64,000 bases of DNA from the NCBI GenBank assembly GCA_021513695.1, contig CP084166.1:1952001-2016000 (forward strand), given 5' to 3'. Positions 6,453 through 54,340 of the stretch are shown here, in pieces. The stretch's first letter is position 1. The number at the start of each line of letters is the position of its first letter. The notes beneath the pieces are model-generated. The model ran no database searches. It was not told the DNA's origin and saw nothing but the letters and a program-made list of their open reading frames with translations. The position numbers were made by a program, and so were the translations under genes. Source of the DNA: Candidatus Heimdallarchaeum aukensis. GTDB taxonomy: Archaea > Asgardarchaeota > Heimdallarchaeia > Heimdallarchaeales > Heimdallarchaeaceae.

Positions 6453-7859
6453 TTAACTATTAACATTTTTTTCTCCATAGTAAATAATAGACCACGGATA
6501 TTTAACTACGATTTCACTAATTACTCTACGGACTTTATTCTGTTCTGAGGTGTTATTATAAAATAAAATAAACACCTTTCCTCCTCGACTACGTTTCATC
6601 TTCTGATATACAGTTTTTGGACTATTAACTAAATCATAAACAATTAATACATCTGTTTGTGGAATATCAAGGTCACGTTCTCCAACAGAAGAAATTAATA
6701 ATACAGATTTTTCTTTCGCATTTTTAAAATTTATAAGAGGTTCCGCTTTTATAGTTGTTTTTCCTTCTAATACATAAACATTATAGCCAATAGATAAAAA
6801 TTGTTTTTTTAATGAGTAAATAGATGATAAATATGAACATAAAATAACAACTTTTTTGAATCTTTGCGCGACTTTTATTGTATAATTTTCTTTTCCTGTT
6901 TTCTGAGGATAGGGGGGCAATTGTTCAGGAGAAAATCCAAATCTAAGTAGATGTTTCCAAAAAGAGGAAACAGGCATAGAATAAACGTATTTCCTTAAAA
7001 TTAAAAGGTGATTTAACTTTTTTATTATTTCAGGTTCAATATCGAGAAATTGAAGATCATTTAAGAACATCTCATCGTTCTGAAGCTCACTAGAATGATC
7101 TTTCTTTATATTATCCTCTATTTTTTTAATTTCAAGTGATAGGAAATCTATAACTTCTTTTATTGAATCATCGTTTACTGGGTGAAGATAAATTTCTGTA
7201 TGGGTAATATAATTATTAATATCTGTTTTATTAAGATCTTCAAGATAAATGATATCAGTATTTGGAAAAAAGTCTAATAACGTAGACAATTCTTTTCTTT
7301 TGAAAACTTTCTTATCACTAGAGATTGTATGATAATCTCTTAAAGTCCCACTCATTCCTATAAATCTACAATGACTAAATCTAGATATTATGTGATTCCA
7401 TGGATTTCGCAATACTGTGTTATAACTAATTCTTCGAATTATAGTATCGATTTCATTTATAATTATTATATTAAAGGAAGATGCAATATTAGGGTACTTT
7501 TTGATTGTATTCATAAAAGATAAAGGTAGTGTAAGTATTATCCTGCTATTTTCTAAGATATATTTTCTTTGGATTGAACTGTGTTTTGAATGAACAACCC
7601 CTAAATCTTCAATGCCTCCATATCTATTGTTTAAGTAATCTTCTGTTTCTTGTAAACTTGATTGATTTTGAAGAAAAATCAAGATTTTCTCTTTTAAAAA
7701 AGCTTCTACTATTAAACGATAAATAATTACTCTTTTTCCCATCCCACAATCAAGTTCTAAAATAACATTCCGATTGTTATTAACAGAAGTCAAAATACGA
7801 TCAATTATATAGTTTTGATACTCACGATTCTCAATTCGATTTGATTCCAAAATCCTCAA
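6453..7859 (-). CDS. superfamily-2 helicase
   Basis: Q-motif-like EYQ, P-loop LDCGMGKR, a DExx-like box IINEID, and C-terminal motifs V/VI (SSVGERDLD, QKMKRSRG). Confidence 0.55.
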   Translation of the reverse strand: MRILESNRIENREYQNYIIDRILTSVNNNRNVILELDCGMGKRVIIYRLIVEAFLKEKILIFLQNQSSLQETEDYLNNRYGGIEDLGVVHSKHSSIQRKYILENSRIILTLPLSFMNTIKKYPNIASSFNIIIINEIDTIIRRISYNTVLRNPWNHIISRFSHCRFIGMSGTLRDYHTISSDKKVFKRKELSTLLDFFPNTDIIYLEDLNKTDINNYITHTEIYLHPVNDDSIKEVIDFLSLEIKKIEDNIKKDHSSELQNDEMFLNDLQFLDIEPEIIKKLNHLLILRKYVYSMPVSSFWKHLLRFGFSPEQLPPYPQKTGKENYTIKVAQRFKKVVILCSYLSSIYSLKKQFLSIGYNVYVLEGKTTIKAEPLINFKNAKEKSVLLISSVGERDLDIPQTDVLIVYDLVNSPKTVYQKMKRSRGGKVFILFYNNTSEQNKVRRVISEIVVKYPWSIIYYGEKNVNS

Positions 7860-7953: not shown

Positions 7954-8988
7954 ATGTCAATTGAAATATCTAATTTAACAAAAATTTACAAAGTAAAAGG
8001 AAGAGATATTATAGCACTAAATAACATTACCTTGTCCATTAAAGAAGGGGAGTTTGTTGGACTTCTAGGACCAAATGGGGCTGGAAAAACAACATTAACA
8101 AAAATATTAGCAACATTGGTATCACCAGATCATGGAACAGCTTTTATTGATAATATAAATATTAAAAATTCTAAAAAAATAAGGCAACTTATTGGGCCTC
8201 TTTTCGGAGAAAATGGAGGTCGGAGCTTGTATTATAGGCTGTCAATATATGACAATTTAATTTTTTATTCAAGTTTAGCCGGTGTTCCAAAAAAAATTGC
8301 AAAAAAAAGGATTAATGCTCTTTTAGATTATTTTGATCTAGATAAATATAGAGACGTATTAGTAATGAAATTGAGCACAGGAATGAAAACAAAAGTATTA
8401 TTTATTAGAACTCTCATACCCAATCCAAAGATATTACTGTTAGATGAACCAACACTTGGTTTTGATGCAAATACTTCAGATAAAGCTAGAAAAATTTTAG
8501 AATATTTCAATAAAAAATTCAAGACAACTATTATTCTTACAAGCCATAATTTTTTAGAAGTAGACAGCTTAACAAAACGCATTGTTCTAATTGATAAAGG
8601 AAAAATAATAAAAGATTGTGCTCCTGAATCTTTTAAACAACTAGCATCTAAAAATTTCATTGACATTCATTTTTCTATGCAAAAATTCAATAAGGAAATC
8701 TTTTCAGCATTAGTTTCACAAGTTGTTGGGGGACAACTAGTCAAAATAAAAAAAAGTGAAATAAAGAAAAATGTCCATATTTTTAATGCACGAATTTTGG
8801 CTAAGAAATTCCCAATCAATGAAACAATTGCACTATTAAATAGGATGATTGTAGAAAGGAGAGGAAAAGTGTTTCAACTACAACCATACCAACCATCATT
8901 GAAAGAGGCATTTTTAGCTTATCTAAATTCTAGTGAAAAAAAGTATGAGGAAAACATGGAACAAAAAATAAAGATTACTAATTGGTGA
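7954..8988 (+). CDS. ABC transporter ATP-binding protein
   Basis: Walker A GPNGAGKTT, signature LSTGMKTK, Walker B LLLDEPT. Confidence 0.85.
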   Translation: MSIEISNLTKIYKVKGRDIIALNNITLSIKEGEFVGLLGPNGAGKTTLTKILATLVSPDHGTAFIDNINIKNSKKIRQLIGPLFGENGGRSLYYRLSIYDNLIFYSSLAGVPKKIAKKRINALLDYFDLDKYRDVLVMKLSTGMKTKVLFIRTLIPNPKILLLDEPTLGFDANTSDKARKILEYFNKKFKTTIILTSHNFLEVDSLTKRIVLIDKGKIIKDCAPESFKQLASKNFIDIHFSMQKFNKEIFSALVSQVVGGQLVKIKKSEIKKNVHIFNARILAKKFPINETIALLNRMIVERRGKVFQLQPYQPSLKEAFLAYLNSSEKKYEENMEQKIKITNW

Positions 8989-11381: not shown

Positions 11382-11816
11382 ATGACGAAAAGATTACCGT
11401 GGATACTTCCGGGCATAAGAAGACCTAAATTTAATCTTCATCAAGTAACATTTCGAATACCCACTGAAATTCCACAAAGTGTTTGGTATTTTATAGTATA
11501 TGGAATAATATTTTACATTTTCAGTGGTGGAGCTTATGATATCGTCAATAAAGATTATATTGCTCCATTGGGAAGTGGATCGCAAGGACAACCTCTTTTT
11601 GTTTATCCTGCCACACAAGCACAATTTCTTATTGAAGGAATAGTAGCTGGTTTTATCATTGCCTTTGCAGCTTTAAGTTTATACTTATTTGATTATGCAA
11701 CAAGATTTACCTTTGATGTGAACACGGCACAAAAAATTGAAGTAATAGCTTCAATATTTGTTTTAATCTGGTATGTTGTTATAGTGCTTTTATACAAGAA
11801 AAAAACAGGAGGATAA
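11382..11816 (+). CDS. hypothetical membrane protein (about 3 TM)
   Basis: Three hydrophobic helices. No family recognised. Confidence 0.45.
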   Translation: MTKRLPWILPGIRRPKFNLHQVTFRIPTEIPQSVWYFIVYGIIFYIFSGGAYDIVNKDYIAPLGSGSQGQPLFVYPATQAQFLIEGIVAGFIIAFAALSLYLFDYATRFTFDVNTAQKIEVIASIFVLIWYVVIVLLYKKKTGG

Positions 11817-11931: not shown

Positions 11932-14643
11932 ATGAGTGAGAAATACGTCTATAGATTTTTTTCAAAAGAAAAATGTGAAGGTTCTGCAGAAATGAAAAGC
12001 TTATTGGGAGGCAAAGGAGCAAATCTTGCCCAGATGACTAGTTTAGGTCTACCTGTACCTCCAGGCTTTGTGATTTCTACAAAAGCTTGTTTACATTTTC
12101 TAGCTAATAACAATGAGTATCCCGAAGGGTTAAGCGAACAAATAGAAGAAGCATTGACTGAATTAGAACAAGTCAATGGTAAAAAATTAGGAGATAATGA
12201 AGATCCACTCCTAGTTTCTGTAAGAAGTGGTGCTGCAATATCAATGCCTGGAATGATGGATACTGTACTTAATCTAGGACTAAATGATGTATCAGTCGAA
12301 GGATTAGCAAAGAAGACTAATAACCCACGTTTTGCTTACGACGCATATAGACGTTTTATTTATATGTTCGCAGATGTTGTAATGGGTCTCTCTAAAGATT
12401 ATTTTGAAAAAGAATTAGAAAAGATGAAAGAAAAACAAGGAGTGAAATTCGATTCAGAACTTAGTGCAGAATCACTAAAGGAACTGGTTGAGATAAATAA
12501 AAAAGTATATGAGGAGCATCTAGGAGAGCCATTTCCACAAGATCCAAAAGAACAATTAGATAAAGCAATAAGAGCAGTATTTAATAGCTGGAACAATAAA
12601 AGAGCTATTGATTACCGCAATTATCATGGAATTAGCCATGATCTAGGAACAGCAGTAAATGTCCAAACTATGGTTTTTGGAAATATGGGGGATGACTCTG
12701 CAACAGGTGTTGCATTTACAAGAAATCCTTCTACTGGAGAAAAACAAGTTTATGGTGAATATTTAGTAAATGCTCAAGGTGAAGATGTAGTTGCAGGAAT
12801 TCGAACTCCTGAACCAATAAGCCACTTAAAAGATCATATGCCAGAAGTTTACAATCAATTAATAGAACTAGCTCAATTGTTAGAAAATAGATATAGAGAT
12901 ATGCAAGACATGGAGTTTACTATTCAACAAGGAAAACTATATCTTCTACAAACAAGAAATGGAAAAAGAACAGGTATAGCCGCAGGAAAAATTGCTTATG
13001 ATCTAGTACAAGAAGGATTAATAACTAAAGAAGAAGCAATATTGAGAATTAGTGCAAGTGACGTAGACAATTGTCTGTTTCCTAGCATTAATTGGGCTCA
13101 AATAAATCCAAATGCTCCAATAAAAAGCATAAAAGCAGAATTAAAGAAGAGGCAACTTGGAAAAGGATTACCTGCCGGAGCTGCAGCTGCTTGTGGAATT
13201 GCATATTTTACAGCTGATGGAGCAAAAGAAGCTGCAGACAGAGGAGAAGATACAATACTAATTAGAGTAGAAACAACTCCAGAAGATTTTCATGGTATGG
13301 CTGCATCAAAAGGAATTCTAACAATGAAAGGGGGATTAACTTCACACGCAGCAATAGTAGCTAGACAAATAGGAAAAGCATGTATTGTTGGTAGTGAAAG
13401 AGGAGGAATAACTATTGATCTTGAAGCTAAAGAAGTTCGTGGAAATGGACTAGTAGTCAAAGAAGGAGAATGGATAACAATTGATGGAACAGATGGAGCA
13501 ATCTACCAAGGAAAACTACCAACTACTCCAGCAGAATTACCAGAAGGAATGCAAAAAATACTTGAATGGGCAGATGAATACGCAAAATTAAAAGTAAGAG
13601 CAAACGCAGATAAGCCAGACCAATTCAGAAAAGCAATAGAATTTGGAGCAACGGGAATAGGATTATGCAGAACAGAGCATATGTTCTTTGACCACTTAGA
13701 CATAGTAAGAGAAATGATATTAGCACGTTCTGAAGAGGAAAGAAAAATAGCAGTAGATAAACTAGAACCATTCCAAGAAAAAGATTTCGAAGGATTATTC
13801 GAAGCAGCAGAAGGAAGACCAGTAATAATCAGATTAATTGATCCACCATTGCATGAGTTTCTACCAAGTGAAGAAGAATTACTAATAGAGATTTATGAAG
13901 CAAGATTAGCAGGAAAAACAGAAGAAGATCTTAAAGAACAATACAACATGCTAGAACACGTACGTCTAATGAAAGAACAAAACCCAATGCTTGGACTAAG
14001 AGGATGCAGACTAGGAATAACTATGCCTATAGTAACAGAAATGCAAAGTAGAGCAATATTCAGAGCAGCTGCAAAAGTTAAGAAAAAAGGAATAGAAGTG
14101 ATGCCAGAAGTAATGGTACCCTTAGTAGGATTTGAAACAGAGTTTAAACATCAAAGAAAAATAATCGATAGAATAGCTAAAGAAATAATGGAAAAAGAAG
14201 GAGTAGAATTCAAATATCTAGTAGGAACAATGATAGAAGTACCAAGAGCAGCAATAACAGCAGCAGATATAGCAAAAGGAGAAAAAGGAGCAGAATTCTT
14301 CAGCTTCGGAACAAATGATCTACATCAAATGACACTAGGATTTAGCAGAGATGATGCAGGGCCATTTATTAACAAGTACCTAAGTTTAGACATAATGCCA
14401 GCAGACCCATTCGTAACAATAGACCAGGTGGGCGTAGGAAGACTAATGCAACTATGTGTAAGTGAAGGAAGGTTAACAAAACCAGATCTGGAAATAGGCA
14501 TATGCGGGGAACAAGGTGGTGAACCAAAATCAATTGAATTCTGCCACAAAATAGGATTAAATTATGTTTCTTGCAGTCCTTTCCGTGTCCCAATAGCCAG
14601 ACTTGCTGCTGCTCATTCCGCATTAAAAGATACAAAGAAATAA
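11932..14643 (+). CDS. ppdK: pyruvate, phosphate dikinase
   Basis: N-terminal LLGGKGANLAQM...GLPVPPGF, the catalytic His loop GGLTSHAAIVAR, and a C-terminal PEP-utilising TIM-barrel domain. 903 aa. Confidence 0.9.
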   Translation: MSEKYVYRFFSKEKCEGSAEMKSLLGGKGANLAQMTSLGLPVPPGFVISTKACLHFLANNNEYPEGLSEQIEEALTELEQVNGKKLGDNEDPLLVSVRSGAAISMPGMMDTVLNLGLNDVSVEGLAKKTNNPRFAYDAYRRFIYMFADVVMGLSKDYFEKELEKMKEKQGVKFDSELSAESLKELVEINKKVYEEHLGEPFPQDPKEQLDKAIRAVFNSWNNKRAIDYRNYHGISHDLGTAVNVQTMVFGNMGDDSATGVAFTRNPSTGEKQVYGEYLVNAQGEDVVAGIRTPEPISHLKDHMPEVYNQLIELAQLLENRYRDMQDMEFTIQQGKLYLLQTRNGKRTGIAAGKIAYDLVQEGLITKEEAILRISASDVDNCLFPSINWAQINPNAPIKSIKAELKKRQLGKGLPAGAAAACGIAYFTADGAKEAADRGEDTILIRVETTPEDFHGMAASKGILTMKGGLTSHAAIVARQIGKACIVGSERGGITIDLEAKEVRGNGLVVKEGEWITIDGTDGAIYQGKLPTTPAELPEGMQKILEWADEYAKLKVRANADKPDQFRKAIEFGATGIGLCRTEHMFFDHLDIVREMILARSEEERKIAVDKLEPFQEKDFEGLFEAAEGRPVIIRLIDPPLHEFLPSEEELLIEIYEARLAGKTEEDLKEQYNMLEHVRLMKEQNPMLGLRGCRLGITMPIVTEMQSRAIFRAAAKVKKKGIEVMPEVMVPLVGFETEFKHQRKIIDRIAKEIMEKEGVEFKYLVGTMIEVPRAAITAADIAKGEKGAEFFSFGTNDLHQMTLGFSRDDAGPFINKYLSLDIMPADPFVTIDQVGVGRLMQLCVSEGRLTKPDLEIGICGEQGGEPKSIEFCHKIGLNYVSCSPFRVPIARLAAAHSALKDTKK

Positions 14644-14678
14644 TCACTTTTTTCTTCTTTTTTATTAGATTAAATTTT

Positions 14679-15737
14679 TTATTTTAAGAGTTTTAAAAGG
14701 ATTTTTTTTCTATTTTCAGTTTCTTCAGAAAAATATTCTGGAAATTTTTCTTTTATTTCGTTTTTCCATTCTTTTTTAGAGATAGAATTAGAAAATTTGA
14801 ATGGAAACAACTCATTAGCTATTTTAAACAGGCGTGCTTGCTCAATATAGCTAAAGAAATCTTTTTTGTTTGTTTTTGTCAAAGAAATGCCTATCTGGTG
14901 GTGGTTACCTTTTTTTCTTATTTTTGCTTTAATCCCAACTTCTGATAAGAGTTTTATCAGATACTTTTGTTCTTCAAACGTAAAGTTATTTGTACATAAG
15001 GATAAATCAGTACCTGAAAAATAACCGTCGTCAATATACCAAAATAATAAAACAGTTGGTGTTAGAGTAAGATCTTTTTTCAAAACCTTTTTTGTTTTAC
15101 CTAATTTATTTGAATACCAATTTTCCCAATAACTAAAAAATTCTACAGAGGAAGAAGTATCAAAGCCACAAGACCATTTTATTGATTCTGTATTACTCGG
15201 TTTAACAAATACCTTTAGTTTCGTAAAACTGCTAAATAGAGGAATAAGAGTTTTAATCCACTGAAACTCTAATATAGATTTATGGATTCTTAATGCAGCA
15301 GTATTTACTTTTGAGATTTTAGATACACATTTATTCCAATTAGAGATATCTGTGTTAGTTATAGCTTTTCCTTCATTTACTTTCTTTCTTAATTTTTCGG
15401 CTCTATCCAATAAACGGAGATATTCTGACAAAAGAGGTTGCTTCTTACTCGCTTGCAATTTTGTTTGCAATCGTAAATTTGCGTCTCCCAACATCATTCC
15501 TTCAATGATTTCTTGTATCTCTAAAGGGATAGGATGTGTAAATTCCTTGTTAATATGGTTTCTAGTTTTCGTCCAAAGTGAACCAGGAAAAGGTATTTTC
15601 AAACCCATTGAAGTTAAAAGAGGTTTTATAGTTCTTGGATCTTTATTCAATTCTTTTCCAATTACCTTTATTCCCTTTAATTCACCAACATACATTTTTA
15701 ACAGTTTTTTTTGTATTTCTGTTATTTCTAATGTCAT
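14679..15737 (-). CDS. free-standing LAGLIDADG-family homing-endonuclease-like protein
   Basis: Two LAGLIDADG-like motifs: GMMLGDANL at about aa 70 and LLFWYIDDGYFS at about aa 225. Not embedded in an intron or intein. Confidence 0.45.
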   Translation of the reverse strand: MTLEITEIQKKLLKMYVGELKGIKVIGKELNKDPRTIKPLLTSMGLKIPFPGSLWTKTRNHINKEFTHPIPLEIQEIIEGMMLGDANLRLQTKLQASKKQPLLSEYLRLLDRAEKLRKKVNEGKAITNTDISNWNKCVSKISKVNTAALRIHKSILEFQWIKTLIPLFSSFTKLKVFVKPSNTESIKWSCGFDTSSSVEFFSYWENWYSNKLGKTKKVLKKDLTLTPTVLLFWYIDDGYFSGTDLSLCTNNFTFEEQKYLIKLLSEVGIKAKIRKKGNHHQIGISLTKTNKKDFFSYIEQARLFKIANELFPFKFSNSISKKEWKNEIKEKFPEYFSEETENRKKILLKLLK

Positions 15738-15891
15738 AGTAATTTCTTTCCTGTTGAAAACTGCAGATTTAACTACTTAATGCCCGGGTATTTATTTTCA
15801 ATAAGCTATTTATTATTAACTTAATTTATTCTAACTGTTCAAAAAAAGATTATACCAAATGACTTTATAATACAATTATTAATTTTTATCT

Positions 15892-17577
15892 ATGAAAGTG
15901 GCTATTGCACAAATCAACCCCACAGTTGGAGATTTAGAAAGGAATTACAAAAAAATTGTCAATTATACTAAAGAAGCTTATGAAAATGGTGCAAACATAG
16001 TTATTTTTCCAGAAGGATCTATACCTGGTTATCCAGCCAATGATTTAATGTTAGAAAAATCATTCATTAGGGAAAACAAGAATTATCTGATGAAAGCTGT
16101 AAACGAAAGTCCAGATATTGTTACCATTGTAGGGTTTATTGATTATAACCAAGAATACAAGCTCTATAATTGTGCAGCGATATATAAGTCTGGAAAAATA
16201 ATAGGAACCATAAAAAAGACTTTACTTCCAACATATGATGTTTTTGATGAGTTAAGATATTTTATTCCAGCAAAAAGAGAAGAGATAAAACCTGTAAAAG
16301 TTGAAATTGGAGGGAAAACGATTAATCTGGGGGTTGAAATTTGTGAAGATCTATGGGATCATGATTATGAAACCAAAGTAACAGAATTACTTGTTGAAAG
16401 AGGAGCTGAACTTATAATAAATATCTCTGCTTCACCATATTTTGTAGGAAAAGGAATTGAAAGAGAAGAATTAATCAAAGAAAAAGTTAGAAAAACGAAC
16501 ACACCCTTTGTTTATTGTAACTTAGTGGGAGGACAAGATGAGCTAGTATTCGATGGGCAAAGTTTGATAGTAAATAAAAATGCTCAAACAATCTATTATG
16601 GAAAAAAGTTTGAGGAAGAGTTATCCATAATAGAATTAGATTTAGAAAGAGGTAATGAAAAACCTGAAGAAAGACCTCTATACAATAGAGAGGAAGAGTT
16701 TTACAATGCTATAGTCTTAGGAATAAGAGATTATTTTAGGAAAACAGGCTTTAAGAAAGCAATTTTAGGATTAAGTGGAGGGATTGATTCATCTTTAGTA
16801 GCTTGTTTAGCATGTGACGCATTAGGAAAGAACAATGTAATAGGAGTATCCATGCCTTCAAAATACTCTAGTGACCATAGTAAAAGTGACGCAGAGCAAC
16901 TAGCAAATAATTTAGGAATAGTATATCTTAAATTTTCAATCCAAGACATTGTTGACATGTATTCAAGAGTTCTAGAAGAGCCATTAAAAAAAGTAAGAGA
17001 ATATTATAAAGTGTCAGAAGAAGAGGATAACAGTGTAGCAGATGAAAATATACAGCCAAGAGTAAGAGCGAACTGTTTAATGGATTTTTCAAATAGATTA
17101 TCAAAATTAGGTATTCTCGTTTTAAACACAGGAAATAAAACAGAATTAGCATTAGGATATTGCACAATATATGGAGATATGACAGGGGGACTAAGTGTAA
17201 TAGGAGATGTAAATAAATTAGATGTATATAAACTTGCAAAATATGTTAATATAAGAGAGAAAAAAGAGATCATACCAGAAAATGTATTCAGAAAAAAACC
17301 TTCTGCAGAACTAAAAGAAAATCAATATGACCCATTCAATTTTGATATAGTAAGTCCATTAGTAGATGAAATAATTGAAAACAGGAGAACAAAAAAAGAA
17401 TTAGAAGAAATGGGTTATCCTAGGGAAGAAATAGATAACGTGTATGAAAGAATAAGAAAAGCAGAATATAAGAGATGGCAAGCTCCGCCAACAATAAAAG
17501 TAACAAAAAGAGCTTTTGGAATAGGTTGGAAAATGCCAATAGTAAACAAATATACTGACAAATACGAAGAAGTGTAA
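15892..17577 (+). CDS. nadE: glutamine-dependent NAD+ synthetase (nitrilase + NadE domains)
   Basis: N-terminal CN-hydrolase domain (VAIAQINPTVGD...FPEG) and C-terminal PP-loop LGLSGGIDSS. Confidence 0.9.
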   Translation: MKVAIAQINPTVGDLERNYKKIVNYTKEAYENGANIVIFPEGSIPGYPANDLMLEKSFIRENKNYLMKAVNESPDIVTIVGFIDYNQEYKLYNCAAIYKSGKIIGTIKKTLLPTYDVFDELRYFIPAKREEIKPVKVEIGGKTINLGVEICEDLWDHDYETKVTELLVERGAELIINISASPYFVGKGIEREELIKEKVRKTNTPFVYCNLVGGQDELVFDGQSLIVNKNAQTIYYGKKFEEELSIIELDLERGNEKPEERPLYNREEEFYNAIVLGIRDYFRKTGFKKAILGLSGGIDSSLVACLACDALGKNNVIGVSMPSKYSSDHSKSDAEQLANNLGIVYLKFSIQDIVDMYSRVLEEPLKKVREYYKVSEEEDNSVADENIQPRVRANCLMDFSNRLSKLGILVLNTGNKTELALGYCTIYGDMTGGLSVIGDVNKLDVYKLAKYVNIREKKEIIPENVFRKKPSAELKENQYDPFNFDIVSPLVDEIIENRRTKKELEEMGYPREEIDNVYERIRKAEYKRWQAPPTIKVTKRAFGIGWKMPIVNKYTDKYEEV

Positions 17578-18260: not shown

Positions 18261-18367
18261 TGGAGCCCCGAGGGGGGATTTCAAGCTTTTGCTCACAACA
18301 AAGAGCTATTTGAACCCCCGACCTTTACCTTACCAAGGTAACGCTCTACCAGCTGAGCTATCGAGGC
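18261..18367 (-). tRNA. tRNA-Thr (anticodon GGU) with a ~30-nt insertion in the T-arm (putative non-canonical intron)
   Basis: Cloverleaf folded by hand: acceptor GCCTCGA/TCGGGGC, D-arm GCTC-AGCTGGTA-GAGC, anticodon arm TTACC-TTGGTAA-GGTAA, T-stem GGGGG/CCCCC, encoded CCA. An AGCTC...TTGAAAT block with an internal hairpin sits inside the T-loop. One extra C leaves the exact exon/intron junction ambiguous. Confidence 0.6.
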
Positions 18368-19604: not shown

Positions 19605-22600
19605 CTATTGTTCAAGAAGAAAATCTGATAAATTAACAGATTTCTTTTTCTCTGTTTTTCTAATTTTACGCTTTGATTTTTTATCAGCTGATCCATCATC
19701 AGGTAGGAACATTGTTAAAATGTTTTGTTTTAGTACGTCTATCCTAGATCGCAAATATTCTGAAACTGAATATTTCGAAACTAAATAATTGATAATATTA
19801 AGATATTTGGTTACTGATTTTTCAAAAACAGTAAGATTTAGCTTATTTGCACCACATTTTGTACAATATCCGCCCAAAGGAATACGACGATAGGTAGTAT
19901 TACAATTTGTGCAACGTATTTTTTGGCTACCAAATCTACGCATATTACCTATAAGATCTGGCAGAAATTGTTTGAAAATTACTCTTGTTGCTACATCGTC
20001 AACATCAACTGCTCTAATCTTACTAGCTAGTTCTAATTGTGCATCCACTTTTTCTTTCATTGTAGCTAAACGAGTATAAAGAGAAGATTTTTCGCCTACG
20101 AAAATTGAGGAAGTCTCATGACTATAGGAAAAACCTTCATAGGCAGCTTTTGTGTTTAACCTATGACTTACAATGTCAATTAAAGGGAGAACCTTCTTTG
20201 CGGGTAATGATTTCAGTGTAGATTCATAAAAAGACAAAGGATAAGAGTTACCTGTATCAACGTTATGAGACTCATCATCAACCTCAAAGGGATCTATTGT
20301 AGAAACCAAAATTAGCGGGGCATCCATTTGACCGCCTCTAACTTCTGGTAAAAAGAATTTTGAAAAATTAAGAAAAGCATCAAGAGCTAGAAGAATACTA
20401 TCCTCATCTCCATCGCAGTTCATCGTAATGCAACTAGTTGTCTGGAAATTATGTAACATTGTGTCATTTCTTATTGTTTCAACTTCCAAACAATATGAAG
20501 CCTCTTCTTTTGCAATATTATTTATTTCAGCTATTTGGTCACATATAGTATTATGTGCTTCTTTAAGTTCATAATAGTGATTGTTGTATTTTATCCGTCT
20601 ATTTTCAGGAAAACCTTTTTTAATAAATTGTTTCAGTTTTTCTTTTTTATTTTGATTAATTAGATCTAGATGTTGCATTATCCAAAGGTCTGCTCCTCTA
20701 ATAGATATTTTGTGAACAACTGTCTTTTTAGGCTCTTTTCCCAATTCTTTATATTTTTCCAATATTTTTTTGCCAAAATGTCCTTCTGGAGAAGATACTC
20801 TAGATCTTACGAATACACCAATGGTTGAAAAGAGATAAGTTATATCCTTTAATAATTCATTTGAAACAGAATAGAATGATATTTCCCCTACATCTTTTGA
20901 GAGCGTTCCATCTCCATCTAGATAGGCGGAAATAAAAGCTAATTTATATTTAGTTGGTACTGTATAGAGAAAGTTTGGCAAACGTTTTCTATAAGCTCCT
21001 TTCCCCATATTCCATGCATATGCGAAAAGATAGGCTAATATTCTTCCAGAACAAATAACGTTTCTTTCTTCGCTGATATAAGGAGTAAGACCTAGAGTTC
21101 GTTTTATTATTTCCACCAAATATTTTCTCATTTTTTCGTCTGGGATAGAAAAATTAATCTGATAACAGTTCTTATTATCCCGAATATGTCCTTCAGAAAT
21201 GTAATAACCTAGAATTCTCATTAACTCATCATTAAAAGGAAAATAGGGAGAAATAGTAAAATCATCTCTAGCCATCCCCAATCTTGCATCTGAAGGGATC
21301 TCATTCCAGTCAAAAATTCCTTCTTTTTGCAAAAGTTCTAAGTGGGATAAGGGGATAGAATCAAACCAGTGATTAGAAAAGAAGTATGTAGAATGAGGTA
21401 TATCGATTCCTTTTGAAAGAATATAATTTAGAAGTATCTTAGTACATGAAGAAGAGTTAATATTGCTGCTTTTTTCTTGAGAAAGTTTATTGCAGAAATC
21501 GTTTAACTTACTTTTTATCCAATTTCGGGCTTTTCTAAGTCTTACTGTGTGTTTAAATTCAGTAAACTTCTTGCTGTCAGGTAAGTTTTTTGCCAATTCC
21601 TCTAAAACATTTACTACTTTGTTATGTTGAAACCCTAACTCTGGAATCTTTGTTTTAATTGCAATATATTCGCCTATTTGTAAATTTCTTGCTTTCACAT
21701 TTTCGAAATCATTTGTCAGTTCATTCAACACGAGCATATTGTGGTCAGGTGTTACTGTTATTTCATTTCCACTTTTGGTTTTTATTTGCAACCATCTTTC
21801 ACTTTTTCCCTTAATCCAATGCTTGATGGGTTGTAAAATAGAAGAAGAGTTTTTTTGATCTAGACTAATGACCTTCCATTCTTTATGAAGATTCTCAATT
21901 GCAAATGTCCCAAAATCATCTACCAGCTTACTCTTAGCTCCTGATTTTATCTCTTCTTCTACTAGTTCTCCAATACTTTTTACAATGACCTGTTTCTTAT
22001 TTTCGTCCCAAATAAGTAGTTGTTCAGTTGGAAATAAACAATTTCTTCTTTTTGCTGCATGCCAATAAGGATGAGCTAATATTACTTTAGCATCAGTAAA
22101 TCCTATTAACCTTCCAGCAATACCTGCTGAAGTATGAGGAGCTAAACCTATAATTAAATGACCAACTAGGTCATTAATTGTTTTTGCTTTGTAAAAGGGA
22201 GGAAGTCCATACAATCTTTCTAACAACTCATCGATAAAATGAGAGACTTTTAGGAGATATTTACCTCCTTCCTCATTAACAATCACATCTTGAATTTTTA
22301 ATTCTAGTAGCTGATCTTCATTTTCTAGTAAATTCCCATGAATATCGTGTGTATAACCTATAGAATGGAGTTTTGAAATTGAAACACCAATTTCTTTTGG
22401 CTTAAAATGCGTAATTACAGCATCAGTAGCATCAAAACGTATTGTTCCATCACGGTATACAAATACATCGTTTAAAGAACGTAATATCCCTTTTACTATA
22501 AATTCTGGTATACGATGTTTATTCATCAGTTTTTTAACAGCTTTTACATTTTTAGGTAAATCAGAGTTAAATTCTCTTGCAATTTTTCTAAATTCTTCGT

Positions 22601-24776
22601 TAATAGGAAAGGGTTTAGTTTTGTAACTAATTAGAGGTATCCCACACCTTTTACATTTATCGTCATTAGATTCTAACCCACATCTTGGACAAAATTTAAT
22701 GATTTCTGTTACTACATTACAACGTGAACATATGGATAAATGCGTAGTAGAACCACATACATGACATTTTCTTTGTACTAATTCGATCTCTATAACTTTT
22801 TTTTCACTCGCGGAAACAATATTTCTTTGATTACCTCCTGCTTCACCAATTGGAAAAAGTAGATGCACTGGAGGTTTCATCTTTCTACTTTTAGCTTTTT
22901 CTGGACGCCCCATTCTTGCACCAGTATAACAAGGACACTTATCTCTCACTTTAATATATTTGTAGGAGTTAATTATTTCTAAAACAGTTTTTGCTTTATT
23001 TTCCACCGGAAGTAAACTTCCATTTTTAAAACCTAAAGATATTAGTAGAGTTTGCGAATGTTCCCCAAATAAAATTTTTCCATCCCTTATAGAGTGAGGA
23101 ATGCATATTTCTTCCAAAATTGTTTTTATCTCTTTATCATAAGGTAACTCTAAATTTTCATCTTTATTATAGTATGATGATATATATTCACGTAACCGAA
23201 TATATGCAGAAATTGAAATATCATTCCAATGATATGTATATTCAGGATGAAGTGGAATATCAAGTAAAAGCGATAGTCCTATAGCTTCTTCAGCGGTTGG
23301 GATAATGTTCAAGGGGTCTTTTATGAACTTATCAAACTTTTGTTTTTTATTTTTAAAAAACTGATTTATCTCTACTTCAGAAAAATTCATTAACTGCTTC
23401 TCAAGTTCTTTTGCCCACCATTCTTCACAATATCCAGAAGGTACAAGATCATGGTTAAACTGGTTAAATTCACCTACACCATAAAGCATATCTCCAAGAA
23501 AAAGAATCTTTTCTATTTGATCTTTTAATTGAATACCTTCTTCATAGGAATTAACTTTACAAACATTACCGTTTTTTAGAAGCACAATAGGTGGATGTAT
23601 AGAATCCACAGGCATGACAATGGCTCCTTTTCCGGGTCTTTCTGTTCGCAAATGTGTTCCACAAACCAAAAAATCATTTGTGATTGCAAAAAGTGCTGGA
23701 TGTACACCCATTGCAGCTAATCCAGTAATTCTAGAACGCCCATATCTAATCCTAAAACCACCTTTCGCGGATGGATGACTAAAAACTGGCCTTCCACCAA
23801 TTACGTCTTGAATATAACCTGTATCAGGCTTAATAAACAAATTATCTTGCTCAATTTCATGTTTACTTGTACCTTTTTCTTCATCAGTTTCTCCAGAATT
23901 CTCAATATTCTGGCTTGAGTGTATTTGTATTAAATCGGAAAACCAGTCCCAACCCTTTAATTTATGTTTTGATACTCTTTTTTCAAGTTTTTTTACTCTA
24001 CCCACAATACCGTCATTAAAAACTAAACAAGCACCTCCTCTAAGTCTATTAGTTTCAATACGTTTCAAATCTCTATTTCCAGAAACTTCAACTTTCTCAG
24101 TAGGTTCTCCTGTGATTTCAATGGGAAGATTTCTTGCCGCAAATCGCTGCTCCTCTTTAGTTGTGGGAAGTTGTAAATGCATTACTTTGTTGTAAAGATC
24201 TATTTCCTCTACCGTTCGCTCTATTTCTCTCTCTGTAGGTTTATACCTATCAAGTTTTAATGTTCGTCGTATGTGATCAGCCAACAAAACACTCATACCC
24301 GCTGCCGTACCACCAGCAGAGCGTATAGGTCCAGCATAGTAAACAGCTAAGTAGTCGGATCCGTCATCATTTTGCTTAATTTTTACTTTCGCTATACCTT
24401 CAAGAGGAGCTGCAGTGATGCTTTCAGTTATTATTGCCAATGATGTACGGAGTGCTTGCTCGGCGAGCTCAATTTTTTCAGAAGAAAAAAATTTACCTTC
24501 AGCTATTTCTTCTGCAATTTTAAATGCCACGCTTTCGCGAGAGAGACCTTGTCTTTCAAGTTCTCTAATTCTCTTCCCAACCCCTTTAGGTCCAATTAAT
24601 CCTTCAACTCGATCAGCAATATCTTTAGCGATAGGTATTTCAACTTCAGAAGAAGGATCATAACCTTTTTTTCTCGCCTGTTTAGCAATCCTATAAGTTT
24701 GTTCTATCAATGAATTAATTTCCTCAAAATATCCCCTAACATTTACTGAAATTAACTCGTCATCTGATATTTCCAT
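19605..24776 (-). CDS. DNA polymerase II (PolD) large subunit DP2, intein-containing
   Basis: DP2 N-terminus, Zn-ribbon clusters, and the RRN/CDGDED catalytic motif split by a 541-aa insertion. Confidence 0.95.
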   Translation of the reverse strand: MEISDDELISVNVRGYFEEINSLIEQTYRIAKQARKKGYDPSSEVEIPIAKDIADRVEGLIGPKGVGKRIRELERQGLSRESVAFKIAEEIAEGKFFSSEKIELAEQALRTSLAIITESITAAPLEGIAKVKIKQNDDGSDYLAVYYAGPIRSAGGTAAGMSVLLADHIRRTLKLDRYKPTEREIERTVEEIDLYNKVMHLQLPTTKEEQRFAARNLPIEITGEPTEKVEVSGNRDLKRIETNRLRGGACLVFNDGIVGRVKKLEKRVSKHKLKGWDWFSDLIQIHSSQNIENSGETDEEKGTSKHEIEQDNLFIKPDTGYIQDVIGGRPVFSHPSAKGGFRIRYGRSRITGLAAMGVHPALFAITNDFLVCGTHLRTERPGKGAIVMPVDSIHPPIVLLKNGNVCKVNSYEEGIQLKDQIEKILFLGDMLYGVGEFNQFNHDLVPSGYCEEWWAKELEKQLMNFSEVEINQFFKNKKQKFDKFIKDPLNIIPTAEEAIGLSLLLDIPLHPEYTYHWNDISISAYIRLREYISSYYNKDENLELPYDKEIKTILEEICIPHSIRDGKILFGEHSQTLLISLGFKNGSLLPVENKAKTVLEIINSYKYIKVRDKCPCYTGARMGRPEKAKSRKMKPPVHLLFPIGEAGGNQRNIVSASEKKVIEIELVQRKCHVCGSTTHLSICSRCNVVTEIIKFCPRCGLESNDDKCKRCGIPLISYKTKPFPINEEFRKIAREFNSDLPKNVKAVKKLMNKHRIPEFIVKGILRSLNDVFVYRDGTIRFDATDAVITHFKPKEIGVSISKLHSIGYTHDIHGNLLENEDQLLELKIQDVIVNEEGGKYLLKVSHFIDELLERLYGLPPFYKAKTINDLVGHLIIGLAPHTSAGIAGRLIGFTDAKVILAHPYWHAAKRRNCLFPTEQLLIWDENKKQVIVKSIGELVEEEIKSGAKSKLVDDFGTFAIENLHKEWKVISLDQKNSSSILQPIKHWIKGKSERWLQIKTKSGNEITVTPDHNMLVLNELTNDFENVKARNLQIGEYIAIKTKIPELGFQHNKVVNVLEELAKNLPDSKKFTEFKHTVRLRKARNWIKSKLNDFCNKLSQEKSSNINSSSCTKILLNYILSKGIDIPHSTYFFSNHWFDSIPLSHLELLQKEGIFDWNEIPSDARLGMARDDFTISPYFPFNDELMRILGYYISEGHIRDNKNCYQINFSIPDEKMRKYLVEIIKRTLGLTPYISEERNVICSGRILAYLFAYAWNMGKGAYRKRLPNFLYTVPTKYKLAFISAYLDGDGTLSKDVGEISFYSVSNELLKDITYLFSTIGVFVRSRVSSPEGHFGKKILEKYKELGKEPKKTVVHKISIRGADLWIMQHLDLINQNKKEKLKQFIKKGFPENRRIKYNNHYYELKEAHNTICDQIAEINNIAKEEASYCLEVETIRNDTMLHNFQTTSCITMNCDGDEDSILLALDAFLNFSKFFLPEVRGGQMDAPLILVSTIDPFEVDDESHNVDTGNSYPLSFYESTLKSLPAKKVLPLIDIVSHRLNTKAAYEGFSYSHETSSIFVGEKSSLYTRLATMKEKVDAQLELASKIRAVDVDDVATRVIFKQFLPDLIGNMRRFGSQKIRCTNCNTTYRRIPLGGYCTKCGANKLNLTVFEKSVTKYLNIINYLVSKYSVSEYLRSRIDVLKQNILTMFLPDDGSADKKSKRKIRKTEKKKSVNLSDFLLEQ
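20418..22040 (-). mobile_element. intein with LAGLIDADG homing-endonuclease domain, inserted in DP2 between RRN and CDGDED
   Basis: The insertion starts with Cys (CLFPTE...) and ends ...SCITMN before extein +1 Cys. The internal LAGLIDADG motifs are ILGYYISEGH and FISAYLDGDG. I checked the codons at both junctions against the DNA. Confidence 0.8.
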
Positions 24777-50889: not shown

Positions 50890-50917
50890 ATAGGCGAAAA
50901 CTGATATCTAAAGTAAT

Positions 50918-53900
50918 CGAACTATGCCTACGCCATGCTGTGGATGACTTGGCTGGGGAACCGATGAAGGTCGTGGTAAGCCGCGAAAGGCCTCGGGGAG
51001 ACGCAAACAGTCTACGATCCGAGGGTCACCGAATGGGGATCCCGACACAGCCTAATAAGTTGTGTCAACCAGTAATGGTGGGGAACGTGGGGAACCGAAA
51101 CATCCAAGTACCCACAGGAAAAGAAAACAATTGTGATTCCGTGAGTAACGGCGAGTGAAAGCGGAACAGGTCAAACCGAATTCCCTTTTCGAAAGATTAG
51201 GGTAGATGTGGTGTTTGTGACTGCAATATGGACCGTCAGCGTGAAGTCGAAGACAATGTGGAACATTGCGCCATAGAGGGTAAAAGCCCCGTAGACGTAA
51301 GCGCTCGGCCTAGCAGGATCAAGACTAGCGTGGCTTGGATTTGTCGCGCAAATATGGGAAAACTATGTCCCAAACCTAAATATTCCCCCAGACCGATAGC
51401 GCACTAGTAGCGTGAGCAAAAGTTGAAAAGTATCCAAAATATGGGAGTGAAAAGACCCTGAAACAGCATGGTAACAGACGTGGATGGCTCGAAAGCGTAG
51501 ATTCTCAGCGAAGGAACTCACCGTGAGGTGTTAGTACGAGCTGAGAGGAGCGGGGTCATCCGTTCCGTCTAGAAACACGGGCCGAGGAGTTCAGATTCGT
51601 GGCGAGCCTAAACGTATGTGGTGGCGTAGCGAAAGCGACCTGCACGCAGCACTTATGTGCCAGGTGCGACGTACGATAAGTGCGTGAAGTCACGGGTCTG
51701 AGACACGAAAGGAGTCGATCTACCCCTGGTTAAGGTGAAGCGCTTCGAAAGGAGCGTGGAGGCCTGAAGGGTTTCTAATATGCAATTTGTTCCTCTGAAC
51801 TGGGGGTAGTGGCAAAAGACCAATCTAGACTCCTGATAGCTTGTTCCCGCCGAAGTATAACCACAGTATAGCGTCACCGGAGGTTGCATGTGAGGTAGAG
51901 CTACGGACGGGTTGTCCCGGGGAGTGAAATCCTCGCCAATCCTTCCAACTCCGAACTTGCATGCGCCGTAGATGGTGGCAGACGGGCGTGTATCCGCAAG
52001 GGATATGGCCGCGAGGGGTTCAACCCAGAGGTTGGTTAAGGGCCCTAAATCCTGGTTAAATGTTAAACTGAATGACGTCCAACGGCTTAGACAATGAGGC
52101 GGTAAGCTTAGAAGCAGCTATCCGTTAAAAAAAGCGTAACAGCTTACTCATCGAGCTGTTGGGCTCAGAAAATGGACGGGGCTAAACCAGGTCCCGATAC
52201 CAATCCGAACTTCAAAAGAGTTTTGGGTAGGCGGGCGATCAGGTTGGGCTGAAGCTGGGGGGTGACTCCCAGTGGACCGGCTTGATTTGCAGATCTCGGC
52301 GGTAGTAGGAGCATAGTGAGGTGAGAATCCTCATCGCCGAAAGCCCAAGGGTTCCTTGGCACTGTTCGTCAGCCAAGGGTTAGTCGGTCCTAAGGGTGAT
52401 CTTAACACGAATCACTCGAAAGGGAAACAGGTTCATATTCCTGTACCGCGCATATAGGTGTGGTGACACAAGCTTTGAGCAGACACTGGTGGGTAGGTGG
52501 CCTAGGAGCGTATCCTAGTTAAATCCCGAATTCTGGGGAGAACCGTTATGGTGAGAACCAGAAGAATGGATGAATAGGCTGGCCATCGGTTGCTGGCTGC
52601 CATCAATCCCAACAGTCCATGAAAATGCGAGAAGAACGATTATGCGCGACCGTACCCAGAACCGTGACAGGTGTGGCTAGCTGAGAAGGCTAAGGCGTGT
52701 TAGGAGAAATCAGGTGAAGGAAATCGGCAAATTAGCCCCGTATCTTGGGTATAAGGGGTGCCTGGAAAGGTGTATGCCTTCCCAGGTCGCAGTGACAAGG
52801 GGCACCCGACTGTTTAATAAAAACATAGCAAACTGCAAGGGTGAAAACCTGTGTACAGTTTGTGAATCCTGGCCGGTGCTGGTGATTGAAACCTGGGTAC
52901 AACCAGGCTAAGACCCAGTAAACGCCGGAGCTAACTATGAGCTTCTTAAGGTAGGCAAATGCCTTGTCTGCTAATTACAGACGTCCATGAAGGGACCAAC
53001 GAGGTGCCCACTGTCTCCACCTGAATCCTACTGAACCCACAGTCCAGCGAACAGTCTGGAATGCACCATCGGGAAGAGAAGACCCTGTAGAGCTTTACTG
53101 CTGTCAGAGGCTGTTGTACTGGTGCTCATACATAGAATAGTCAGGAGGCGTCGATCCTACATTCTCCGGGATGTAGGGGAGCCGACAGTGAAATACTGAC
53201 TTTGAGCATTGGTACGACTCACCTCTTGCGAGGGGGACACCCTCTGCCTGGCAGTTTCACTGGGGCGGTAGCCTCTTGAAAAGATATCAAGAGGGCCCAA
53301 AGCCAAGCTCAACCGGGACAGAAATCCGGTGTAGAGTGCAAGGGCAAAAGCTTGGTTGACTGTGAACTGATAGAGAAGGTTCGCAGATGTTAACGCAGGG
53401 CCTAGCGATCCTTCGCATTGCCCATAGTAGGCGGCGGAGGTGGCGGAAAAGTTACCTCAGGGGTAACTACACTTTGATGTTACACTATCAAAGTGGCTAG
53501 ACAAAAAGGAACTTTTCCTGCATTGCACTTTATCTTTTCAAGGGCACGAAAAAATGAAACAAAAAAATAAAGCTAAGGTGGGTCAAATTTTACCCGAATG
53601 AATAATATACCGCAAAAAAAAGTTATCGAGTGAGGATTACTTACAAGTTTTCGCCTAATGGTCAAAAGGAAAACTTGAGCGGATTAGAACGGATCCAACA
53701 TCTGCCTTAACCATCAAGAAAAAAGACCCTTGGAAAAGATGAAGAGCCATTTTGAAAGTGTGAGGTCAAGAGGTTATTAGATCGGTAACTTGCCTTAAGC
53801 CGAGGCTGACAACTAATCTAATAACCGAAGTCGAAAAGACTGGTGTAGCCCTGAACAGAGTTGTCGTGGGTAAGAGTTCACATCGACCTCACGGCTTGCT

Positions 53901-54340
53901 ACCTCGATGTCGGCTCTTCCTAGCTTGGAGGTGATTCAGCTTCCAAGAGTGGGGTTGTTCGCCCATTAAAAGGGAACGTGAGCTGGGTTTAGACCGTTGT
54001 GAGACAGGTTGGATTCTATCTGATGGTGCTGGCGGGAGATTGAGAGTAAAACCTCCACAGTACGAGAGGAACAGGCGGTTGGGGCCTCTGGTGTATCGGT
54101 TGTCCTCCCGGGCATTGCCGAGTAGCTAAGCCCTTGAAGATAAGAGCGGAAAGCATCTATGCTCGAAGCTTCTCTCGAAACGAGTCTCCCATTCTGTACC
54201 TTTTGGGGGCTGGTGACAGCAACCTTTGGTATAGACGAGAGCACGGAAAGAAGATCCGGTTGATAGAGCAGGGGTGTGCGCGTCGAGCTTCGGCGAGATG
54301 TTTAGCCCACTGCTACTAATCGCTCAAGCGTAGTTCGACC
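50918..54340 (+). rRNA. 23S (large-subunit) rRNA, interrupted by a ~389-nt insertion
   Basis: Conserved 23S blocks recognised by eye: 5' GGATGACTTGGCTGGGGAACCGATGAAGG, GACTGTTTAATAAAAACATAGC, GGGGTAAC...AGAGTTCACATCGAC...CTCGATGTCGGCTCTTCC. The 5' and 3' ends pair (GAACTATGC / GCGTAGTTC). GC is about 50%, against about 30% for the genome. Confidence 0.9.
53468..53856 (+). other. putative 23S rRNA intron (non-coding, AT-rich)
   Basis: The conserved domain V sequence GGGGTAAC|AGAGTTGTCGTGGGTAAGAGTTCACATCGAC is split by about 389 nt of AT-rich sequence. The boundaries are ambiguous by 2-3 nt. Confidence 0.6.

Follow-up and report, generated by a model that had tools for sequence, protein, structure and literature searches.

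A free-standing LAGLIDADG endonuclease gene beside ppdK in Candidatus Heimdallarchaeum aukensis is probably a mobile element that travels with a replacement ppdK 3' end

We analysed a 64,000-nucleotide stretch of the Candidatus Heimdallarchaeum aukensis chromosome (GCA_021513695.1, contig CP084166.1, positions 1,952,001 to 2,016,000; hereafter the window), in which an earlier note, made from the letters alone, had pointed to a 352-aa open reading frame (ORF) with two LAGLIDADG-like motifs between ppdK and nadE. The ORF is real, running from ATG to stop, and lies on the minus strand, which the note had not stated (Table 1). Its transcription converges with that of ppdK and diverges from that of nadE. 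As the note had proposed, it is free-standing and outside any intron or intein, since it forms a separate ORF of its own and both neighbours are unbroken. Its product, UJG39944.1, is named 'hypothetical protein K9W45_08810' by NCBI and 'Homing endonuclease LAGLIDADG domain-containing protein' in UniRef, and we found no mention of the gene in the available part of the paper on the circularised H. aukensis genome (Wu et al, 2022; PMC8813620). The neighbouring ppdK product is 100% identical to the protein that NCBI names pyruvate, phosphate dikinase in this organism, and the ppdK of a 96%-identical locus, L001, carries the Pfam domains PPDK_N, PEP-utilizers and PEP-utilizers_C (relatives are referred to by locus number throughout).

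The endonuclease protein matches the Pfam family PF03161 (LAGLIDADG_2) over residues 139-288 with 77.4 bits (cut-off 25, E=1.6e-21), and the same family is found in all close homologues; an NCBIfam search of the protein gave no match. In a sequence search of the PDB, the sole meaningful match was to I-SceI, weakly and over motif 2; the other matches, to antibody light chains, were dismissed as spurious. Both motifs align with those of I-SceI (GMMLGDANLR with GLILGDAYIR, and FWYIDDG with YWFMDDGG). For structure prediction we built an alignment of 29 family members from a full hidden Markov model scan of 1.8 billion representatives; a further homologue search with the 29-sequence profile added 2 new proteins among the matches listed. 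The resulting AlphaFold2 model has a predicted local distance difference test score (pLDDT) of 94.2 and a predicted template-modelling score (pTM) of 0.89, compared with a pLDDT of 52 for an earlier model from 5 sequences. Foldseek searches of the PDB with this model placed I-SceI and I-WcaI at the top (probability 1.00, target-normalised TM score 0.70-0.73), with I-DmoI next; the best match was I-SceI 5a0m_B (E 5.4e-8, probability 1.00, target-normalised TM score 0.73). Sequence identity to these structural matches is 15-17%, and the model and the Foldseek matches together show the pseudo-dimeric fold with two alpha-beta-beta-alpha-beta-beta-alpha units.

In the single chain, a conserved acidic residue closes each of the two LAGLIDADG helices. 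Across the 29 sequences, G84, D237 and three further columns are invariant, and G80, L83, D85 and G238 are conserved in at least 90%. The earlier note had worried that the motifs might be coincidental and had called them tentatively, in view of a spacing of about 155 residues. Orthologues retain both presumed catalytic aspartates, the motifs stand far above chance, and profile and structure searches both detect the fold, so that the double-motif assignment holds. D85 and D237 are separated by 152 residues, compared with ~100 for the aligned residues of I-SceI, and the long spacing is explained by a confidently modelled helical hairpin of ~40 residues inserted in the first half-domain. The model also shows a C-terminal helical extension and an N-terminal three-helix module resembling a helix-turn-helix (HTH), in which G22, K24, I26, G27 and the D33-P34-R35-T36 stretch are invariant in the subfamily; this is probably an accessory DNA-binding module. 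On its predicted structure, the ORF product belongs to the I-SceI type of LAGLIDADG endonuclease, monomeric and with two motifs, and we predict that it is catalytic.

Close homologues are few: a search of 5.8 billion proteins gave 4 clusters, a scan of metagenomes added a few, and one came from a Heimdallarchaeota metagenome-assembled genome (MAG). Wherever the flank is present, the gene stands tail-to-tail with ppdK (in the window, L001, L002/L122, L004, L005/L125, L085 and L086), and the L003 contig ends inside the last 13 ppdK codons. These ppdK-linked endonucleases are mutually 43-70% identical, and their opposite flank varies among nadE, ORF316, a CHAT-like gene and ORF246. ppdK itself occurs in ~65 Heimdallarchaeaceae protein clusters, and the six loci that we inspected as empty sites (L120, L121, L123, L124, L126 and L127) have ppdK and lack the endonuclease gene. 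Outside the species group of H. aukensis, L120 and L121 come closest to it (ppdK 90% and 88% identical), and in L123, L124, L126 and L127 ORF316 follows ppdK directly. No remnant of the endonuclease gene was found by tblastn in empty loci L120, L121 and L123. A comparison of ppdK-nadE synteny, which the earlier note had proposed, thus shows the insert to be present in some close relatives and absent from others. Whether a locus is filled could be forecast from the ppdK tail type alone, correctly in 4 of 4 look-ups, by a rule in which a 901-aa product ending ...GLNYVSCSPY..HTTLRNK predicts a filled locus and a 900-aa product ending ...GLDYVSCSPF..RTTLKN an empty one (P0193 was likewise forecast to be empty).

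Heimdallarchaeaceae usually have ORF316, a conserved ORF of 316 aa without a Pfam domain, as the next gene downstream of ppdK, with 53-84% identity between lineages. It lies between ppdK and nadE in L121; in the window this place lacks it, and the endonuclease gene there borders immediately on the region upstream of nadE.

To place the limits of the insert we compared filled allele L125 with empty alleles L124 and L126, which are 94-100% identical to it over 6.5 kb of rpoB, helicase, surE and ppdK genes. In ppdK there are 20 mismatches in the 1055 nt up to position 6555 and 35 in the 148 nt from 6556 to the stop codon (Fisher p=2e-20), so that identity is ~98% through ppdK and then 76%. The boundary falls 16-27 nt upstream of the codon for the catalytic cysteine (6572; GICGEQGG): at 6556-6577 (-16 to +5), 11 of 22 nt differ from the empty alleles, which are identical to each other there. 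In L125, a foreign block of 2276 nt, comprising a new ppdK tail, the endonuclease gene and ORF246, has taken the place of 131 nt of native sequence. On its far side remain the final 17 nt of the native ppdK (CTACACTGAAGAACTAA, encoding the empty-type ...TTLKN and stop) and the native spacer, and past the insert ORF316 is again 95-99% identical to the empty alleles.

ORF246 (246 aa, no Pfam family on record) lies inside the 2.3-kb insert at 8062-8802 on the plus strand of L125, corresponding to 6246-6983 of L005. It is 100% identical between these two loci and absent from the other filled loci.

L086 preserves a fuller displaced gene end. Here an intact ppdK tail of 44 codons with its stop lies between ORF316 and the endonuclease gene, starting exactly at the cysteine codon. 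The displaced and resident tails are 72% identical and differ at 22 codons synonymously and at 4 non-synonymously, which argues that they diverged as functional gene ends before they were joined. Removal of 1298 bp, made up of a ppdK tail and the endonuclease gene and nothing else, restores gap-free collinearity with empty allele L123. A third breakpoint is seen between two filled alleles, L004 and L005, whose ppdK bodies differ at 4 of 194 nt, and which then differ at 25 of 178 nt from ~43 nt before the cysteine codon (p=1e-5). Their endonuclease genes have a synonymous divergence (dS) of about 1.0, with 70% amino-acid identity, and their far flanks are unrelated. The breakpoints in L125, L086 and L004/L005 therefore all lie inside one region of ~45 nt near the cysteine codon, and those of L125/L124 and L004/L005 lie upstream of that codon, as co-conversion of the gene end with the endonuclease gene would leave them. 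A displaced 3' end was found beyond the endonuclease gene in L086 (44 codons) and L125 (17 nt); relaxed tblastn searches found no ppdK-tail remnant in the window, L001, L002, L004, L005 or L085. In the window, a search with the ppdK C-terminus returned the resident tail only, with nothing in the intergenic region beyond the endonuclease gene.

These data suggest that the gene is probably a mobile free-standing homing endonuclease gene (HEG) that targets the region of ppdK encoding the catalytic-cysteine loop and spreads together with a replacement ppdK tail. The enzyme would cut HEG-less ppdK in or near the loop codons (..LE.GI-CGEQGG..), and the break would be repaired from an HEG-bearing allele, with one crossover in ppdK just upstream of the cut and a second in downstream homology, or by an illegitimate junction where gene order differs. 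The last ~44 ppdK codons would be co-converted with the HEG, and ppdK would stay intact for that reason. The native tail would be overwritten or, where downstream homology is missing, displaced beyond the HEG and left to decay. From sequence comparison we infer catalytic activity of the enzyme, its role in making these breaks and the likely position of its exact recognition sequence; the candidate region in the window (Table 1) is transferred from the breakpoints in relatives. Among filled lineages, 5 of 6 have GGG as the glycine codon after the cysteine, and among empty or displaced copies 0 of 6 do (p=0.005, a value that counts near-duplicates and ignores phylogeny); as a possible determinant of immunity it is only a lead. 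For the H. aukensis copy itself, the observations are an intact gene, a conserved position and empty nearest relatives (ppdK 88-90% identical).

Several points weigh against this reading. The putative target is placed from recombination boundaries, which show where crossovers fell and need not coincide with the cut. Over 17 nt of the catalytic loop (GAACAGGGCGGGGATCC) the DNA of filled alleles hardly differs from that of empty ones, and therefore the immunity of filled alleles would have to rest on a few flanking differences. In L086, a comparison meant to tell which tail is native, the displaced or the resident one, gave nearly equal identities to empty alleles (80.3% compared with 78.8% identity to L127, not significant; 79% compared with 75% to L123, within noise). 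The window copy shows no scar and has no near-isogenic empty partner. All of the relatives are metagenome contigs or MAGs, L004 being a short contig, and chimeric assembly at the mosaic sites is conceivable, though unlikely: for L004/L005 the mismatches at the switch occur every ~10 nt, and the same boundary is found in the independent long contigs L125, L124 and L126. Finally, the HEG tree and the tree of ppdK bodies are broadly congruent, and much of the history of the endonuclease may be vertical, with losses. Given this congruence, transfers were probably among close relatives, against a background of much vertical descent.

The same congruence would be expected of a domesticated protein, an old vertical resident beside ppdK that has taken on a host function, such as HTH-based regulation, and has been lost repeatedly. 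The gene is under purifying selection, with a ratio of non-synonymous to synonymous divergence (dN/dS) of 0.11-0.33 across measurable pairs (0.33 for the window and L001), and is intact in every lineage seen; its position next to ppdK is kept among proteins only 43-50% identical, and it carries the additional HTH-like module. Continued homing would likewise predict purifying selection, however, and genomes with ~98% identical flanks differ in whether they have the gene. The dS of ~1 between the L004 and L005 HEGs far exceeds the ~2% divergence of the adjoining ppdK bodies, the displaced ppdK tails (native in L125, presumably so in L086) mark insertions and not deletions, both catalytic aspartates are retained, and the nearest relatives of H. 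aukensis have neither the gene nor a remnant of it. A domesticated gene would be fixed in its clade, free of signs of mobility and often degraded in its active site, and we found none of these features. We consider domestication improbable. The earlier note had left the choice between 'domesticated or mobile' open; patchy presence, sharp boundaries and displaced ppdK tails speak for the second term and against the first.

The variable island at the ppdK 3' end might alternatively be a recombination hot spot made by some other mechanism, such as general homologous recombination, or by another element, with the LAGLIDADG gene as possibly inactive cargo. The far flank is indeed highly variable, the L125/L005 insert holds a second ORF of unknown function (ORF246), and the downstream region is rearranged in empty genomes too. 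Against this, the LAGLIDADG gene is the sole gene common to all inserts and the only one accompanying the ppdK tail in the smallest of them (L086, 1298 bp), the three independent boundaries all lie ~45 nt or less from a single codon, the inserts showed no integrase or transposase, and the ORF and its catalytic residues are conserved under selection. We give this explanation little credence.

The earlier note had further suggested that the enzyme might serve an ORF-less 23S intron or a tRNA intron elsewhere in the window. ARAGORN and Rfam detected no intron-containing tRNA in the 64 kb. The 23S rRNA gene does contain an ORF-less insert, with junctions (marked by slashes) ...CAGGGGT/AACTACAC...GTGTAGCCCTG/AACAGAG... 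in the DNA and ...GGGGU/AACUACAC...CCCUG/AACAGAG... in the RNA. The base before the 5' junction is a U and the insert ends in G; close to its two ends lie CTACAC and GTGTAG, which could pair. The intron-less site would read CCTCAGGGGTAACAGAGTTGTCG. By E. coli numbering the insert should lie after U2449, which corresponds by homology to the I-SceI site, a curious coincidence in view of the structural match. Rfam group I intron models gave no match to it at E<=1. That the enzyme acts in trans for this insert by cutting intron-less rDNA, as T4 MobE acts for the defunct I-TevIII intron, draws on the closest solved structures (I-SceI and I-WcaI), the position of the insert, its missing ORF and the trans-homing precedent of PMC2790892, and is nonetheless very unlikely: the gene, at 14.7-15.7 kb, lies ~38 kb from the insert (53.47-53.85 kb) and neither in nor linked to an intron that it would serve, all relatives with a known flank are linked to ppdK and not to rRNA, the co-varying DNA is the ppdK tail, an unlinked HEG would gain no advantage from mobilising an intron, and the insert has no group I match in Rfam. 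Double duty, with homing today into the catalytic-loop codons of ppdK across Heimdallarchaeaceae populations combined with cutting of the intron-less 23S site and mobilisation of the insert in trans, is a similarly long shot; if true, phage T4 MobE/I-TevIII trans homing would have an equivalent in cells, in the archaeal lineage closest to eukaryotes.

Beyond the ppdK-linked subfamily, several distant relatives (22-38% identical) lie amid phage-type genes, including those for a head maturation protease, a Thg1-like enzyme, a DNA primase and an HNH endonuclease, and no ppdK was found near them. From these contexts, the wider family looks like one of free-standing viral endonucleases, with the ppdK-linked subfamily as a chromosomal offshoot. 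A tblastn search of the endonuclease against 50,697 phage genomes gave no match. In longer relatives, arrays of Pfam HTH_23, HTH_28 and Sigma70_r4 modules precede the same core. We considered whether P0008, P0010, P0036 and other distant relatives are in-frame fusions to host genes and rejected this, as their additional Pfam domains are HTH modules alone. L091 (5500-6903), L092 (5524-6783), P0036 and P0038 have 4-5 tandem HTH repeats of ~45 residues before the LAGLIDADG_2 core, with the pattern ..KEWLY.EY...GKS..QIA.ELG....T...W..KFGI, and genes of the L091/L092 type adjoin phage head-maturation protease genes. This tandem-HTH plus LAGLIDADG_2 architecture may merit its own description.

Other features of the window are listed in Table 1. 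The gene for the large subunit of DNA polymerase II (DP2) contains an intein with a LAGLIDADG_3 domain, as judged by Pfam on the near-identical L001 gene; it is the second LAGLIDADG element in the window and is unrelated to the ppdK-linked gene. The OST3/OST6-family protein counts among the eukaryote-signature proteins that are typical of Asgard archaea.

Table 1. Coordinates of the endonuclease gene, its parts and surrounding features (window positions unless a locus number is given)
Feature	Position	Strand	Basis or remark
Endonuclease gene, LAGLIDADG_2 (I-SceI-like)	14679..15737	-	ORF, Pfam, AlphaFold2, Foldseek
N-terminal three-helix HTH-like module, residues ~7-43	15609..15719	-	AlphaFold2 helices 7-18, 23-29 and 34-43
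Motif 1, GMMLGDANL, residues 80-88	15474..15500	-	presumed catalytic D85
Helical hairpin insertion, residues ~103-141	15315..15431	-	helices 103-121 and 128-141, pLDDT >90
Motif 2, LLFWYIDDGYFS, residues 230-241	15015..15050	-	presumed catalytic D237
ppdK, host gene	11932..14643	+	3' end abutted by endonuclease gene
Candidate target/crossover region in ppdK (codons ...LEIGI-CGEQGG...)	14476..14525	+	transferred from breakpoints in relatives
ppdK tail, catalytic-Cys codon TGC (14503) through stop	14503..14643	+	segment that co-travels with the endonuclease gene in relatives
A/T-rich 35-bp spacer between convergent stops of ppdK and endonuclease gene	14644..14678		
154-bp intergenic region 5' of endonuclease gene	15738..15891		shared with divergent nadE
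nadE (NAD synthase)	15892-17577	+	Pfam CN_hydrolase and NAD_synthase in 96%-identical locus L001
ORF316	L086 327-1277; L123 7729-8679; L124 6735-7685; L121 9392-10339		
OST3/OST6-family protein, just upstream of ppdK	11382-11816	+	Pfam on L001 orthologue
tRNA-Thr(GGT)	18294-18367	-	sole ARAGORN tRNA in 64 kb
DNA polymerase II large subunit (DP2) gene with intein	19605-24776	-	Pfam on near-identical L001 gene
C/D-box small RNA, RF00095	38538-38594	-	46.7 bits (threshold 45)
23S rRNA gene	50916-54339	+	
ORF-less 389-nt insert in 23S gene	53465-53853		GC 0.34-0.39, compared with ~0.5 in exons

If the gene is a mobile HEG as we propose, the locus provides a natural example, at the level of sequence, of free-standing LAGLIDADG homing in the chromosome of an archaeal cell, from the family of Asgard archaea that stands closest to eukaryotes. 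It would show that the stretch of a central metabolic gene encoding its active site can be invaded, with neither intron nor intein, by a selfish endonuclease that brings a replacement gene end. The locus also documents recent gene flow by homologous recombination among Heimdallarchaeaceae populations, and it puts forward several enzymes that have diverged to 43-70% identity, with one candidate target of ~20-40 bp apiece, as candidates for new meganuclease scaffolds.

Among known systems, I-SceI and I-WcaI share the Pfam family PF03161, give the best structural matches and likewise have a single chain with two motif helices. The gene for I-SceI lies in a group I intron of the mitochondrial large-subunit rRNA gene, whereas the gene described here is free-standing in an archaeal chromosome and its putative target is a protein-coding gene, not rDNA. 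The protein is also longer (352 aa, compared with 235 for I-SceI), with the HTH-like module, the ~40-residue hairpin and the C-terminal extension as additions. In its genetic behaviour it recalls the T4 Seg and Mob endonucleases: intronless homing of free-standing phage HEGs is described in PMC2790892 and PMC2330249, the former also giving a precedent for trans homing. The likeness lies in a stand-alone HEG beside a conserved gene, presumed cutting of HEG-less alleles and co-conversion of flanks; the T4 enzymes are of the GIY-YIG or HNH type and act in co-infection, whereas this enzyme is a LAGLIDADG protein of a cellular Asgard chromosome. The strategy of a replacement gene end has previously been described mainly in fungal mitochondria, where partial C-terminal duplications of cob and atp6 flank LAGLIDADG or GIY-YIG ORFs (PMC6279837). 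There, as in L086 and vestigially in L125, the HEG has the intact host gene on one side and a displaced or duplicated copy of its 3' end on the other. Unlike the organelle cases, this one lies in an archaeal chromosome and has near-isogenic empty alleles that set the boundaries, and the window itself has no displaced copy. An archaeal parallel is found in the glycosylation islands of Haloferax, which hold free-standing pfam03161 genes with a suggested gene conversion of adjacent DNA (PMC5867893); in the available text of that report we found no target, breakpoints or filled/empty comparison, all of which are defined for the ppdK-linked gene, the target as a candidate. The principle is a known one and not new, and its documentation at this locus is unusually good.

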